From the NCBI RefSeq assembly GCF_024298765.1, contig NZ_CP101210.1: 64,000 nt of DNA; one strand, given 5' to 3'. Each line of letters begins with the position of its first letter. Positions within the stretch are counted from its first letter, which is position 1. The notes under the pieces were generated by a model. That model was not told the DNA's origin. It searched no databases and worked only from the letters and a program-made list of their open reading frames with translations. Source of the DNA: Escherichia coli. Lineage in GTDB: Bacteria; Pseudomonadota; Gammaproteobacteria; Enterobacterales; Enterobacteriaceae. Shown one piece after another: positions 2,301 through 50,293 of the stretch. Made by a program: the position numbers and the translations under genes.

Positions 2301-3325
2301 GAAATCGTCTCCACTGCGCTAACTTCACCTGATGCACCAATAAAGCGAACTTCAGGCTCAAGCCAGACATTAAATTTTTCACCCACTTTTTGTCTTACAT
2401 GATGTGCCAGTTGCACCACATCTTCGCTTTTTGCATTGTCTTCATTAATGAGGACTAACGCCTGTTGACGGTGCACCGCAGCACCACCCATTTGCATCCC
2501 TTTTAGCTGGCACTGATCGATAAGCCAACCTGCTGCCAGTTTTACTGAACCATCCGCCTGGGGATAATTTGGTGCTGTTGGAAATTGTGCCAGTAATGCT
2601 TTAGCCGTTTCGGCAGATACAACAGGGTTTTTGAAGAAACTACCGGCATTGCCATTCACTTTTGGATCAGGGAGTTTGGTGGTGCGCATATGACACACCG
2701 CATTAAATACTTGCTGTGGCGTTACGGTTGTAGGATCCAGACGAGTTAAGTCACCATACGTTAGTACAGGTTGCCACTCTTTTGGCAGACGCAGACCTAC
2801 GGCTACAATGGCGAAGCGGTCCTGGTATTCATGTTTAAAAATACTGTCGCGATAGCCAAAACGGCACTCTTTGGCAGTTAAGCGCACTAGCTTGCCTGTC
2901 GCCAGTTCAACACAGTCAACATAAGCGCAAACTCGCTGTAATTCTACGCCATAAGCACCAATATTCTGGATAGGTGATGAGCCGACACAACCAGGAATTA
3001 ATGCCAGATTTTCCAGACCAGGCATACCTTCCTGCAAAGTGTATTTTACCAGGCGATGCCAGTTTTCTCCGGCTCCTACATGTAAATACCACGCATCAGG
3101 TTCATCATGAATTTCGATACCTTTAATCCGGTTGATGATCACCGTGCCGCGATAGTCTTCCAGAAAAAGTACATTACTTCCTTCACCCAGAATAAGAACG
3201 GGTTGTCCTTCTGCGGTTGCATGCTGCCAGGCATTGAGTAGTTGTTGTTCGTCTTCGGCACATACAATGTGCTGAGCATTATGATCAATGCCAAATGTGT
3301 TCCAGGGTTTTAAGGAGTGGTTCAT
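2297..3325 (-). CDS. murB: UDP-N-acetylenolpyruvoylglucosamine reductase (342 aa)
   Basis: ORF of expected length ([21 protein letters not shown]...); 4-nt ATGA overlap with birA start. Confidence 0.95.
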
Positions 3326-3414
3326 AGCTGCTTTCCTGATGCAAAAACGAGGCTAGTTTACCGTATCTGCGGGGGGATGGCTTGTAGATATGATGACAGG
3401 AAGAGTTTGTAGAA

Positions 3415-41878: not shown

Positions 41879-44113
<2,235 letters not shown>

Positions 44114-44387: not shown

Positions 44388-45281
<894 letters not shown>

Positions 45282-45659: not shown

Positions 45660-47213
45660 TTATTTGATATCCTTCACGCGCATACCGTTGAGCTGTTCAT
45701 CCGTAATGGTGTTGCCCGCTTTGAAGTAATCAACCACCGCGTGATAAACGTAATAACCGCCCGTTGTGTTACGCGCTTTCCCTTCGGTAAAGGCGGTAAA
45801 ACCATCTCCACCATCAGCAAGGAAACTCTGAGTAGCAATGTGATAAACCGTCGCATCTTCAATGGGTTTGCCATTCAGAGCCAGTGTGATTACCCGCTGA
45901 CCAACCGGCTTGCTGCTGTCGTACTTCATTTCCAGGCCTTTCGATACCTGTAAAACGCCATTGCTTAAACTTGCGCCGTGTTCCATCAGACTGCGTAATT
46001 GTTTACCCGTGAGTTCCATCGTCACCAGTTCGTTGGGGAACGGGAACGTACTGATGACGCCGCCCATCGTGATCGCCCCTGCGGGGATCTCATTGCGAAT
46101 GCCGCCAGAGTTGGTTAACGCCAATTGGGTGTTTTTACCCGCCGCTACCAGTAAAGCGTCAGCCGCCAGGTTCCCGAGGGAAGCCGATTCACCATAGGCA
46201 CGTTTTAATTCAACCGGCGATTGCGCCACCGTTTGTTGCACCACTTCATCAAGCTTTTTATTCCAGCCGTCGATCACCTGTTTCGTTTGTGGATCGGGCT
46301 TCCACTCGTCAGCGTAAATGGTTTTAAGCTCGAAGTTTTTCACCGTAAAATTATGCGGCTTCTCTTTGTAGTCGAGAACCAGTTTGCCCACATCAATCCC
46401 GCCGCTGTCAGTGGAGAGGATGAGCGTATTGCCGACTTTAATCGGTTCCGGCGTACCCACATGTGCATGTCCGGTGATCAAAATATCCAGCCCTTTCACC
46501 TGACTTGCCGTCTGAATATCTTTATCCAGCGCGCGACGCACATCTGTGCCTCCCATACTGGACTGGCGGGCCGGAACACCTTCATGGATCAGGGCGACGG
46601 TCAAATCAACCTTGCCTTTAAGTTCATCGATATAACGTTGTAGCCATTTAATTTCATCACGCGCCTCAATACCCACTCGCGTGGCAGCAGATACTGTGTC
46701 ATTAAAGGCAAATACACCGTGCAAACCTATAACGCCTATTTTCACACCGTCTTTTTCGATGATGGTATAGGGCTTATCCCAGAATGATTTACTGCTGTTC
46801 TGATAAAAAACATTGCCCTGCACAATCGGGAATTTTGCCTGACTCAACTGTAATAATGTGTTGTCCCAGCCGTGGTCAAATTCATGGTTGCCTATCGTGA
46901 CGGCATCAAACGGCATAGTATTCATAATATCGATAATAGCCTTACCTTTGGTCAGGCTGCTGATATATGGCCCGGTAAAATAGTCGCCCGCATCAAAAAA
47001 CCATGTCGCTTTATTTTTTGCTTTTTCTTGCTTAACCAGCGTAGTGATATTTGCCCAGCCGCCAATATCCCGTTTACCGTCAGCGATCCACGGCACTTTA
47101 TAAGGTTCTACATGCGCATGGAGGTCGTTGGTATAAATAATAGTGACATCTTTAGCGCAAGCCCAGAACGGCAGTGTTAATGCGATACCCGCAGCAAGTA
47201 TTTTAATTTTCAT
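45660..47213 (-). CDS. Secreted bifunctional metallophosphatase / 5'-nucleotidase, UshA/YfkN-like (paralog 1, about 517 aa); accessory
   Basis: ORF 45660..47219 starts on TTG; first ATG is at 47211-47213. Signal peptide [20 protein letters not shown]|KD. Calcineurin-like motifs [27 protein letters not shown], plus a C-terminal 5'-nucleotidase substrate-binding domain. Confidence 0.85.
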
Positions 47214-47345
47214 AAACAATCCCTTTCAGTGAGATAAAGGATTGCTACATTACGTTCTGAAAGACTTATTTATGTGAGAGTAATCACATCTGCAGGGGAT
47301 AGTTGCCGGACAAAATCAACGACCTTGTGAAATCGTTGGTGATAT

Positions 47346-48470
47346 ATGTCGACTCTGTTTACGATTAATGCCTGTAAAACGTTCGGTTGCCGAAATTTGG
47401 GATTGGCCTCATCGGAAGATTACAGTTGGCCAGACTATAAACTGGGTTATCCGGCACTGCACTGTCGGGCATGTGGCAGTTACCCGCCGTTGTTTGACGA
47501 GCAACAATTTCGTGACTGGTTGTCAGTTCACTTATCTACGTGGGCCTCGGAGAAGGGTCATTTCTGCCCGGTATGTTATGGCACAGACATGATTTGTTAT
47601 GGTCACAATCCACAGGGTTCGCAACGCATTCAATGCCGTAACTGCAAAAAAGTCTGGACGCCTAAACAGTATCAGAAAGAAATTACGCATCCCCAGGCCA
47701 TTGAAACCGTTCAACTGTTCATACCCTTTCAAGGGGCCAGCGCAGTACAAAAACTGTATGTTTTAGTCAGTCTTGACGCCACTCGTGGCAACATTCTTCA
47801 TCTCTCCACGAATTATACGCAACATCAGACAGGAGACAGTCTGCGGTACAGTTACAAGGGCAACACAGAACCAACTATGCACCATCGCGATATCGTGCAG
47901 AAGGTAGATATGCGTGAAGCGCAATTCTTGCGCCGGAGCCAGTTCGATGAAATTCAGTATGGCAGTGCTGTACTCAAGCGCAACGGTAAGGGAGCCATAC
48001 TACGCCCGGTTATCACGGCACACGGGCATTTCAGAATACTGAAAATCCGCTATCCAGATGTCAAAACGCATATTATTTCACACGAATGTTTTCTAAGAGG
48101 CGCAATTATTACAGCCTGGGCAGATCAGTTCCGCCAACAACAAGGTGAACTTTGGTTCGTAGAAGAAGAAATCAGTGACAGTAACGCTGATACGCCCTGG
48201 CATTTTAAGGGAACGACATACCATGGTTGGTGGCAAAATCAGTGGCAGCGCTGGGAGCAGGGGAATAACTGCAAGATGGTCTGCCTACTCACGGGAGCCA
48301 GCTTAGAAAGGGGCGCAAATGTTTCTCTGGCAACCAGTCGTTGTTTTATCACATGGCTGACAGACCAACACGACTTTACCCAAAGCGCGTTATTATCCGC
48401 AGGTCGCGTAACGCAAATGCTGACCTCACTGGCGTTAAAATACAATGAATCGCTCACTCCATCTTGTTAG
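47346..48470 (+). CDS. Cysteine-rich hypothetical protein with two N-terminal zinc ribbons (374 aa), the second InsA/IS1-like; function unknown
   Basis: CxxxxC...CxxC (C10, C15, C40, C43) and CPVC-x19-QRIQCRNCKKVW (C74, C77, C97, C100). The second fits the IS1 InsA pattern CPxC...QRYxCxxCRKxW. No recognisable domain in the C-terminal 260 aa. Divergent from paralog 1. Confidence 0.6.
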   Translation: MSTLFTINACKTFGCRNLGLASSEDYSWPDYKLGYPALHCRACGSYPPLFDEQQFRDWLSVHLSTWASEKGHFCPVCYGTDMICYGHNPQGSQRIQCRNCKKVWTPKQYQKEITHPQAIETVQLFIPFQGASAVQKLYVLVSLDATRGNILHLSTNYTQHQTGDSLRYSYKGNTEPTMHHRDIVQKVDMREAQFLRRSQFDEIQYGSAVLKRNGKGAILRPVITAHGHFRILKIRYPDVKTHIISHECFLRGAIITAWADQFRQQQGELWFVEEEISDSNADTPWHFKGTTYHGWWQNQWQRWEQGNNCKMVCLLTGASLERGANVSLATSRCFITWLTDQHDFTQSALLSAGRVTQMLTSLALKYNESLTPSC

Positions 48471-48699
48471 TCAATACACTCGACAAACGACCATAAATTA
48501 AGAGAGATCACTACCTTTCATTTAATTAAATATATAAATGTATGACCGTGAAATATAATCATGGTCAATGTTTAATTAATAACATTATTTGTTACTAAGA
48601 TCACATAATACTTTTCTGAACTATGCTTACATAAAATAAGACACGATGTGCCTTTTATTTAAATAATTCAACAAATGTAACACACCCTATCCAGGAGGG

Positions 48700-50253
48700 A
48701 TGATGAAAACTGTATTTACAACATTATCAGTCATATTCGGCGTGATATTTTCTCACAGTGTTCTAGCTCAGGACGTTACTATTTATTATACGAATGACAT
48801 TCACGCACATGTCAATCCGGCAAAAATCCTCGCTGTTGATAAGAACAGACTTATAGGTGGTATGGCTAATATTGCAGGCATCGTTAATGAAGCGAAGAAA
48901 AAAAGCAAAGATGTGTTTTTCTTTGATGCAGGCGACTATTTTACCGGGCCGTATATCAGCACCCTGACCAAAGGTGAAGCTATTATTGATATCATGAACA
49001 CTATGCCCTTTGATGCGGTGTCTGTTGGTAATCACGAGTTCGATCACGGTGTGCCCAATATGGTGTCTCAGTTATCAAAAGCAAAATTTCCCATTCTGCT
49101 GGGAAATATCTACTACACCGATACGAATAAACCAGTTTGGGATCATCCGTGGACCATTATCGAAAAAGATGGTTTAAAGATTGGTGTGATTGGATTGCAT
49201 GGCGCATTCGCTTTCTATGATACAGTCGCGGCAAAAGCACGTGAAGGCGTAGAAGCCAGAGACGAAATTAAATATTTAAATAAAGCACTTGCAGAATTAA
49301 AAGGCAAAGTCGACATTACCGTTTTGCTAATTCACGAAGGTGTCCCGGCGCGTCAATCAAGCTTTGGTAGTAAAGATGTGGAGCGGCTACTACAGGCAGA
49401 TATTGAGACAGCTAAAAAAGTGAATGGTGTTGATGTCTTAATTACCGGTCACGCACATGTCGGAACACCGCAACCAATAAAAGTTAATAACACATTAATT
49501 GTATCTACCGATGCATACGGCACCAACATCGGAAAACTTGTGCTTGATTACAATCCGAAAACGAAGAAAATTGATAGTTATAATGGTGAGTTAATCACCA
49601 TCTTTGCAGATCAATTTAAACCTGACACCATCGTTCAAAATACTATTGATAAATGGAGTGCAAAGCTTAACAAAATAACACAGGAAGTTGTCGGCCATTC
49701 TCCCGTAGTTTTAACACGTGAGTATGGTAGTTCCTCTTCTACCGGCAACCTTATTCTTGATGCAATGATGGAAAAAACACCTGATGCCGTTGCCGGATTT
49801 CAAAATAGCGGTGGGATTCGAGCTGATTTTCCTAAAGGCGATATCACACTGGGAGATGTTATTAGCACATTCCCCTTTAATAATGACCTCATCGAGATGG
49901 ATTTGACGGGCCGCGATCTCAAATCATTGATGACGCATGCAACCAATCTAACTAACGGTGTGTTACAAGTTTCTAAAAGTGTTGCGGTTGTCTATGACAG
50001 CAAAAAACCCCTCAACCAACGGTTAATCTCTTTCACCATTAACGGCAAACCTGTGGAAGATAATCAAACATATCGTATTGCCACGCACTCCTTTTGTGCC
50101 AGTGGTGGTGACGGTTTTGAAGCATTTTTGAATGGAAAAAATGTGAAGACGATACCGGGAACAACCTCGGCGGAATCTATCATCGATTATTTCAAAAATC
50201 ATAAACCTGTCACCCCAGACTTAACTAAACGAGTCATGGACGTCGCCAAATAA
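48700..50253 (+). CDS. Secreted metallophosphatase / 5'-nucleotidase, UshA-like (paralog 2, 517 aa); accessory
   Basis: AGGAGG RBS at 48693-48698; signal peptide MMKTVFTTLSVIFGVIFSHSVLA|QD; same motif set ([27 protein letters not shown]). The most divergent of the three paralogs, with visibly AT-richer codon usage. Confidence 0.85.
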   Translation: MMKTVFTTLSVIFGVIFSHSVLAQDVTIYYTNDIHAHVNPAKILAVDKNRLIGGMANIAGIVNEAKKKSKDVFFFDAGDYFTGPYISTLTKGEAIIDIMNTMPFDAVSVGNHEFDHGVPNMVSQLSKAKFPILLGNIYYTDTNKPVWDHPWTIIEKDGLKIGVIGLHGAFAFYDTVAAKAREGVEARDEIKYLNKALAELKGKVDITVLLIHEGVPARQSSFGSKDVERLLQADIETAKKVNGVDVLITGHAHVGTPQPIKVNNTLIVSTDAYGTNIGKLVLDYNPKTKKIDSYNGELITIFADQFKPDTIVQNTIDKWSAKLNKITQEVVGHSPVVLTREYGSSSSTGNLILDAMMEKTPDAVAGFQNSGGIRADFPKGDITLGDVISTFPFNNDLIEMDLTGRDLKSLMTHATNLTNGVLQVSKSVAVVYDSKKPLNQRLISFTINGKPVEDNQTYRIATHSFCASGGDGFEAFLNGKNVKTIPGTTSAESIIDYFKNHKPVTPDLTKRVMDVAK

Positions 50254-50293
50254 AATCTCATTTATCAGTCAATTTATTTAACAAGGAATGCGA

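Follow-up and report, generated by a model that had tools for sequence, protein, structure and literature searches.

The 132-bp spacer that separates two divergently oriented Escherichia coli genes, coding for a 5'-nucleotidase (nucleotidase 1, nuc1) and a zinc-ribbon protein, is probably a compact bidirectional promoter under catabolite control arranged around one CRP site, in which the complementarity of two 7-bp arms would be coincidental. The predicted CRP site at 47273-47288 is a better candidate for a shared element than any other palindrome here; it was absent from the sequence-only reading of this DNA, where the two arms had been put forward as a shared operator.

Genomic setting and conservation of the spacer

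The window, which is the whole stretch of 64,000 nucleotides analyzed here, comes from the E. coli chromosome and carries between metF and metL an accessory island composed of nucleotidase 1, the zinc-ribbon gene, nucleotidases 2 and 3, and a Tsx-like channel. The genes concerned are the following:

41879-44098, minus strand: katG
44388-45278, minus strand: metF
45660-47213, minus strand: nucleotidase 1, with metallophosphatase and 5'-nucleotidase C-terminal domains
47346-48470, plus strand: zinc-ribbon gene, 374 aa, annotated as a hypothetical/cytoplasmic protein
48700-50253, plus strand: nucleotidase 2 (nuc2)
50288-51913, plus strand: nucleotidase 3 (nuc3)
51990-52850, plus strand: Tsx-like nucleoside channel (tsx)

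The spacer (47214-47345) extends over 132 bp from the ATG of nucleotidase 1 (47213, minus strand) to that of the zinc-ribbon gene (47346), and nucleotidase 1 presents a hydrophobic, signal-peptide-like N-terminus. Among 5426 complete E. coli genomes, the full island was found in 658 and the nucleotidase 1/zinc-ribbon core in 1841, about a third of the total and always in single copy; the carriers of this core include the uropathogenic strain CFT073, as well as Klebsiella, Citrobacter and Enterobacter. An APEC genome paper named the island "GR 31, metL..metF", covered its gene content and proposed a role in nucleoside processing (PMC12928451). A literature search by protein accession retrieved no match, and the sole paper mentioning the island lists its genes and does not deal with regulation (PMC12928451). 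The island genes are accessory and absent from K-12, and are therefore missing from CRP regulon lists. In the avian E. coli strain CT30 (H21, NZ_CP032078.1), an IS1A copy was found inserted within the region matching window positions 46900-47700, at the nucleotidase 1/zinc-ribbon junction, a natural disruption that could be used as a ready-made mutant.

Homologs of the zinc-ribbon protein were found throughout the Enterobacteriaceae, and a species-level scan comprising 37 loci revealed that the gene was divergently paired with a nucleotidase 1 ortholog in about 30 of them, with a spacer of 132-138 bp in all these cases. The paired loci were distributed among Escherichia, Citrobacter, Klebsiella, Enterobacter, Kosakonia, Phytobacter, Kluyvera, Pluralibacter, Silvania, Rahnella and other genera, and nucleotidase 1, which was 88-99% identical across about 30 species, was the conserved divergent partner of the zinc-ribbon gene. 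The elements of the spacer considered in the comparison, some of them putative, are given below:

47223-47229: left arm of the 7-bp repeat, CTTTCAG, which on the minus strand reads CTGAAAG followed by GGA and overlaps the Shine-Dalgarno sequence AAAGGGA of nucleotidase 1
47252-47247, minus strand: putative –10 hexamer of nucleotidase 1, TAATGT, its centre 31 bp from the CRP centre, with a predicted start near 47240
47257-47263: right arm of the repeat, CTGAAAG, ending the 14-bp, nearly invariant block TTACGTTCTGAAAG (47250-47263), of which it makes up the 3' half
47273-47288: CRP core TGTGAGAGTAATCACA, TGTGA-N6-TCACA, centred at 47280.5, matching 10/10 core positions
47311-47316, plus strand: putative –10 hexamer of the zinc-ribbon gene, CAAAAT, its centre 33 bp from the CRP centre, with a predicted start near 47323
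47317-47338: second dyad, CAACGA-N10-TCGTTG, at about –6 to +16 of the putative zinc-ribbon promoter and overlapping its predicted start

The comparative footprint was obtained by aligning 33 spacers from more than 10 genera and scoring each position by its majority fraction, and the neutral baseline was taken from 182 four-fold degenerate sites of the adjacent nucleotidase 1 gene (mean 0.60, with 7% of the sites at 0.9 or above). Spacer DNA outside the motifs (47289-47310) scored 0.62, and the elements CCTTTCAG, TTACGTTCTGAAAG, TGTGA, TCACA, CAAAAT, CAACGA and TCGTTG scored 0.90-1.00. In the deepest homologous modules, L034 and L044, whose zinc-ribbon proteins present 38% and 43% identity, respectively, the CRP half-sites, both –10-like elements, TCTG, CGA and GTTGG were kept. 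Judged by this footprint, the two divergent genes share the spacer as a control region under strong constraint.

Other features of these loci were observed. Between E. coli variants (L003 and L004 against the window), nucleotidase 1 was 98% identical and the zinc-ribbon protein only 77-78% identical, which would reflect either a much faster evolution of the zinc-ribbon gene than of its partner or a recombination breakpoint within the spacer or within the zinc-ribbon gene. Two module architectures were recognized: in the window, nuc2-nuc3-tsx lies downstream of the zinc-ribbon gene, whereas in Enterobacter and in second copies of some Escherichia and Citrobacter (L010, L011, L012, L030 and L033) a co-directional nuc1-nuc2-tsx-nuc3 cluster is divergent from it; the metF-linked pair and the operon-type module occurred together in three genomes. 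In Salmonella enterica subsp. arizonae (L035) the zinc-ribbon match was limited to residues 126-367, in L030 it was partial, and in a Kluyvera locus (L031) nucleotidase 1 was frameshifted, which suggests that the module is decaying in some hosts.

A predicted CRP site and two putative divergent promoters

TGTGAGAGTAATCACA is the sole perfect CRP core in the 64-kb window, and two of the three window sites with at least 9/10 core matches are located in the two spacers of this island. Its arms presented conservation scores of 0.94 and 1.00, and its 6-bp spacer was at the neutral level (0.61) among the 33 loci. When the left half varied (TGCGA and TGTGC), the right half never changed to match, a pattern indicating binding by a protein rather than pairing within RNA. 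The nucleotidase 1/zinc-ribbon spacer contains no other CRP-like site with at least 7/10 matches. Moreover, CRP-like sites were observed upstream of distant family members, with 9/10 matches in L034, L039/L040, L041 and L044, and a perfect core in L046.

Concerning the putative –10 elements, positions 1, 2, 3 and 6 of TAATGT (T19, A20, A21 and T24) were invariant in 26 loci and positions 4 and 5 varied, and the resulting TAAnnT pattern is the signature to be expected if this hexamer is a –10 element. On the other side, CAAAAT presented a conservation of 0.97, was replaced by CAATAT in L034 and L044, and did not vary at A111 and A113 when the deep homologs were aligned. Relative to the consensus, both assignments are weak (3/6 and 4/6). 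In class II CRP promoters the site is placed at –41.5, corresponding to 32 bp from the CRP centre to the –10 centre, and the hexamers found here at 31 and 33 bp would imply a CRP site at –40.5 and –42.5. A scan for canonical σ70 promoters revealed no –35/–10 pair in the spacer, as expected of activator-dependent promoters, and its sole match was an irrelevant one inside the coding start of nucleotidase 1.

In the arrangement proposed here, a CRP-cAMP dimer at TGTGAGAGTAATCACA would activate two back-to-back class II-type promoters, a minus-strand promoter (–10 TAATGT, start near 47240) driving nucleotidase 1, and a plus-strand promoter (–10 CAAAAT, start near 47323) driving the zinc-ribbon gene. 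The left arm of the repeat would be placed in the short 5' leader of nucleotidase 1, and the right arm would end the block between the CRP site and the –10. Both TTACGTTCTGAAAG and the CAACGA dyad would fall outside CRP, RNA polymerase and ribosome binding and would probably serve a further factor, for which the zinc-ribbon protein is the obvious candidate. CRP binding, the start sites, the class II geometry and the role of the zinc-ribbon protein are all inferred from the sequence rather than shown, and the evidence for simultaneous two-way class II activation by a single site comes mainly from model constructs. Such an arrangement amounts to a specific and testable map of the promoters of an accessory locus for nucleotide scavenging, and predicts that the nucleotidase 1/zinc-ribbon locus belongs to the CRP regulon.

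Besides the CRP site and the –10 elements, the spacer contains conserved DNA that they do not account for, such as CGTTCTGAAAG, at about –13 to –23 of the putative nucleotidase 1 promoter. The second dyad had arms at 0.90 and 1.00 and a spacer at 0.78, with the right arm running into the GGTGA ribosome-binding site. Its right arm was invariant and the changes in its left arm were uncompensated, which is not how an RNA stem behaves; a minus-strand terminator-like prediction at 47338-47317 was discarded, being the CAACGA/TCGTTG dyad itself. The positions of CGTTCTGAAAG and of the second dyad relative to the putative promoters are typical of repressor sites, and the dyad is a candidate repressor/autoregulation site. 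The comparison of the conserved block by eye with the consensus sequences of PurR, Cra, DeoR, σ32, σE and σ54 gave no convincing match. The CytR consensus octamers GTTGCATT/AATGCAAC were matched in this spacer with two mismatches only, three times against about one expected, which is chance level. A classical CytR/CRP promoter was rejected for the nucleotidase 1/zinc-ribbon spacer, which has no tandem CRP site and CytR octamers at chance level.

The spacer upstream of nucleotidase 2 carries the other CRP-like site of the island:

48590-48605: second CRP-like site TGTTACTAAGATCACA, upstream of nucleotidase 2, matching 9/10 core positions

Its spacing to either candidate –10 corresponds to –37.5 or –46.5, which does not fit class II geometry. 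In 30 other loci the region following the zinc-ribbon gene had no such site, which ties the site to the E. coli-specific nuc2-nuc3-tsx block. Within 48590-48628, CTTTTCTGAAC comes after TGTTACTAAGATCACA and is similar to CTTTCAGAAC on the nucleotidase 1 side, and CTTTTCTGAAC with TATGCT near nuc2 mirrors CTTTCAGAACG with TAATGT on the nucleotidase 1 side; a TTCnGAAC resemblance between the two promoter regions was also noticed. The idea that the promoter regions of nuc1 and nuc2 are homologous was rejected, as the local alignment was marginal (4.4% of shuffles reached its score) and brought non-equivalent parts together. In the same spacer, AATTCAACAAATGTAAC (48665-48681), 19-35 bp upstream of the nucleotidase 2 ATG, comprises two direct octamers 1 bp apart, each one mismatch from the CytR half-site AATGCAAC, with about 0.17 one-mismatch matches expected by chance in that spacer; AATTCAACAAATGTAAC may serve the nuc2-nuc3-tsx block as a CytR operator. 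In L046, upstream of a distant operon of a nucleotidase and a zinc-ribbon homolog, a near-perfect PurR-box-like palindrome, ACGTAAACGTTTGCGT, abuts the perfect CRP core TGTGACTCGCATCACA (L046 positions 3309-3347).

The 7-bp inverted repeat and RNA pairing

The inverted repeat formed by CTTTCAG (47223-47229) and CTGAAAG (47257-47263), 27 bp apart inside the 132-bp divergent spacer, lies where the sequence-only reading had placed it. That reading had considered it a candidate shared operator, a proposal that is supported insofar as the spacer is a shared constrained control region (blocks at 0.90-1.00 against the neutral 0.60) next to the gene of a plausible DNA-binding protein, and unsupported insofar as the two arms are taken as one operator, given a repeat at chance level, without any compensated change and absent in L034 and L044. 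In fact, when the spacer was shuffled 5000 times with its dinucleotides preserved, 36% of the shuffles contained a perfect 7-bp inverted repeat (mean of 0.59 per shuffle), as did 37% of the 132-bp tiles across the window. The heptamer CTGAAAG/CTTTCAG itself is common: its 21 occurrences in the window are 2.7-fold the heptamer mean and place it 417th among 16384. Fifteen inverted pairs 6-9 nt long were present in a 271-bp stretch around the spacer, including ATGTGA/TCACAT and CAACGA/TCGTTG, which are functionally more telling than the 7-bp repeat. As an operator, this repeat is ordinary and unsupported.

The arms were conserved at majority fractions of 0.96 (left) and 0.97 (right) among the 33 loci. 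An arm was altered in nine of these loci, and in every one of them complementarity was reduced, with compensation in none. When evaluated as an RNA helix on the nucleotidase 1 strand, the arms were 97% "paired", since their columns barely vary, and gave no double-sided changes and a score equal to that of shuffled controls. In L034 and L044 the repeat is gone, the right arm reading CTGCTTG or CTGATAA and the left arm CTTAAAG or CCTGGAA.

Each arm coincides with another constrained element. The left arm overlaps the Shine-Dalgarno sequence of nucleotidase 1, placed 7 nt upstream of the ATG, of which the AGGA core alone persists in L034 and L044; the CTG preceding the AAAGG core also reaches at least 90% conservation. 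The right arm, at about –17 to –23 of the putative nucleotidase 1 promoter, was conserved at 0.97-0.98, and TCTG alone survives in L034 and L044. Being upstream of the predicted start, the right arm would not be transcribed from that promoter, although the nucleotidase 1 start might be elsewhere, in which case the arm might be transcribed. The repeat is best read from these alignments as the coincidental complementarity of two separately constrained elements. Conservation in both arms exceeds what ribosome binding or promoter spacing would strictly require, so that a function of the exact bases is possible.

Besides the arm pairing, an alternative fold was predicted for the nucleotidase 1 leader:

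47217-47244, minus strand: alternative hairpin CAAUCCUUU ... AAGGGAUUG, with 47244-47236 paired with 47225-47217

This hairpin had a centroid fold of –12.4 kcal/mol (z = –2.2 against shuffles), carries the Shine-Dalgarno sequence inside its 9-bp stem, and is more stable than the pairing of the two arms, with which it competes. Its covariation support is modest as judged from the alignment: 81% of the cells were paired, with three double-sided pairs and a score reached by none of 500 shuffles. Its outer pairs were broken in about 45% of the loci, and only the inner five pairs fall within the transcript if this starts near 47240. No known RNA family was retrieved from Rfam for positions 46900-48800, at E values up to 1.

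Two explanations of the arms were weighed against this background. It is very unlikely that they are half-sites of one operator through which a dimeric zinc-ribbon protein regulates itself and nucleotidase 1, a version of the sequence-only proposal. The conservation of the arms across genera, far above the neutral 0.60, their position bracketing the putative –10 and start of nucleotidase 1, suited to repression, and the InsA-like zinc ribbon of the protein are consistent with such an operator; nevertheless, the chance level of the repeat, the nine loci with uncompensated arm changes, and its loss in L034 and L044 while the remaining architecture was kept argue against it, as do the 34 bp from centre to centre, atypical for a dimeric operator, and the distance of the arms from the putative zinc-ribbon promoter, which makes autoregulation awkward.

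Control at the RNA level, in which the nucleotidase 1 leader would fold and mask the ribosome-binding site by means of either the arm pairing or the alternative hairpin, is improbable as well. The minus-strand RNA folds better than its shuffles, the hairpin presents the double-sided pairs mentioned above, and G-U pairs are still possible for 6 of the 11 arm changes in the arm pairing. On the other hand, the 5' arm of that pairing lies upstream of the putative –10 and would be untranscribed, and RNA pairing of the two arms was rejected, as it showed no covariation, equalled the shuffled controls and was out-competed by the alternative hairpin, which in turn fails in its outer pairs in many loci, keeps only five pairs in the predicted transcript and, as the rest of the region, matched no Rfam family. 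The reading preferred here remains that of a CRP-centred bidirectional promoter with coincidentally complementary arms.

The zinc-ribbon protein and comparison with known systems

The zinc-ribbon protein contains two N-terminal Cys4 ribbons (C10/C15/C40/C43 and C74/C77/C97/C100). The second one resembles the IS1/IS1595 and InsA models with scores below their cut-offs (23.2 bits against 28 for NF050000, and 16.5 against 26.1 for PF03811), and of the 61 family members 16 matched PF03811, the best E value being 4e-8. The structure predicted from 61 diverse sequences (13 close homologs gave a pLDDT of 34) presents a C-terminal RNase H-like domain with the DDE transposase/integrase fold, whose top structural matches were DDE integrases/transposases. 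At the sequence level, no match to DDE transposase families was obtained, and a search of PDB sequences gave generic zinc-finger matches only. The strict DDE triad was not observed: position 144 was D/E in 69% of the distant members, no conserved Asp follows strand 4, where P221 and H228 are the conserved residues, and E247 alone was 98% acidic. The Enterobacteriaceae proteins are devoid of a segment of about 60 residues between the ribbons and the core, which in the longer relatives gave weak helix-turn-helix hints.

The gene is single-copy in the 1841 E. coli genomes that carry it and is syntenic with nucleotidase 1 and metF across genera. No terminal inverted repeats were found flanking it, the sole flanking inverted pair being the two CRP-like palindromes, and the interpretation of these palindromes as relic transposon ends was rejected by the absence of the second site in the 30 other loci. 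Since the zinc ribbon of the type it resembles binds DNA in InsA, the zinc-ribbon protein is plausibly a DNA-binding protein. As modelled, it is possibly a transposase-derived and perhaps domesticated protein tied to nucleoside catabolism.

Relatives of the protein at 20-43% identity adjoined nucleoside/nucleotide genes, L045 being uninformative, and for relatives at 20-27% identity such neighbors were counted in seven of the eight lineages sampled:

L034, L044, L046 and L047: 5'-nucleotidase beside the zinc-ribbon relative
L039: NupC-type transporter and nucleoside phosphorylase beside the relative
L041: operon of porin, class B acid phosphatase and phosphodiesterase beside the relative
L037: deoD- and deoB-like genes, Tsx and adenosine deaminase beside the relative

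This linkage makes a local regulator of scavenging plausible, by guilt by association only, and the protein may tentatively be regarded as a transposase-derived local regulator binding TTACGTTCTGAAAG (47250-47263) and/or CAACGA-N10-TCGTTG (47317-47338). In such a role it might, with a similarly low degree of confidence, modulate the CRP-dependent nucleotidase 1 and itself, as CytR does with CRP. In favor of a regulatory function, TTACGTTCTGAAAG and the dyad are near-invariant and are explained neither by CRP nor by –10 or ribosome-binding sites alone; these blocks diverge in L034 and L044, in which the protein is 38-43% identical and the CRP half-sites are unchanged. The divergent pairing with nucleotidase 1 in about 30 species, the neighborhoods listed above, and a single-copy gene coding for a transposase-like fold and domains without a strict DDE triad point in the same direction. 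Conversely, the Enterobacteriaceae proteins are those without the segment bearing the helix-turn-helix hints, no extra copy of the conserved blocks was found elsewhere in the island, including upstream of nuc2 or tsx, the gene linkage would also fit an enzymatic role on nucleic acids, and the conservation of TCGTTGGTG partly reflects the ribosome-binding site.

Taken further, the family could conceivably represent a domesticated IS1/IS1595-like transposase with a degenerate core, exapted as a regulator or sensor of scavenging genes across the Gammaproteobacteria and binding TTACGTTCTGAAAG and/or the dyad together with CRP, a scenario that is rather doubtful on the sequences compared here. This uncharacterized, transposase-descended protein family, whose sole consistent feature is its linkage to nucleoside/nucleotide catabolism genes, is a more interesting lead than the repeat or the promoter region. 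If the family were indeed a regulator, it would be an instance, rare in bacteria, of a transcription factor domesticated from a DDE-type transposase, and a CytR-like role would be played by a protein of transposon origin.

Precedents for the exaptation of transposon proteins as bacterial transcription regulators are found in TldR, which are TnpB-derived, nuclease-dead repressors. Similarly to TldR, the zinc-ribbon protein presents a transposon-derived RNase H-like fold, apparently catalytically degenerate, and is stably linked to particular host genes; unlike TldR, its top structural matches were not TnpB or Cas12, no guide-RNA-like element was found, and its regulatory role is a predicted one. 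Another parallel is offered by InsA, a zinc-ribbon repressor whose targets, the IS1 ends, overlap the promoter of its own gene, as the conserved dyad overlaps the predicted start of the zinc-ribbon gene. As in InsA of IS1 and the IS1/IS1595 transposases, a Cys4 ribbon resembling the InsA/IS1595 type is followed by an RNase H-like fold. In contrast to the IS1/IS1595 transposases, the scores were below threshold, no DDE family was matched, the triad is not strict, terminal inverted repeats are absent, and a single-copy gene keeps its position across genera.

Regarding the CytR/CRP-regulated promoters of nucleoside catabolism in E. coli, such as deoP2, tsx-p2, cdd, udp and nupG, the island shares with them the presence of nucleoside/nucleotide scavenging genes, including a Tsx paralog, a putative CRP dependence, and extra conserved DNA beside the CRP site, suggesting a co-regulator. 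It differs from them by the single CRP site in the nucleotidase 1/zinc-ribbon spacer and by an adjacent candidate regulator that does not belong to the LacI family.

A further comparison is with divergent promoters served by a single CRP site, of which 11 natural E. coli cases are reported, besides the model system of El-Robh and Busby 2002 (PMC3105977). As in araBAD-araC, xylAB-xylFGHR and glpEGR-glpD, one consensus-like CRP palindrome lies in a short spacer between divergent carbon-source scavenging genes (PMC3105977), and, in common with single-CRP divergent pairs, no –35 is evident and –10-like hexamers are placed about 32 bp on each side of the site centre. Unlike those pairs, the geometry here would be a symmetric double class II arrangement, with about 83 bp between the predicted starts, as deduced from the sequence. 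Among known promoter classes, the region would best be placed with the CRP-dependent divergent ones, as a new member carrying extra conserved sites for a further factor.
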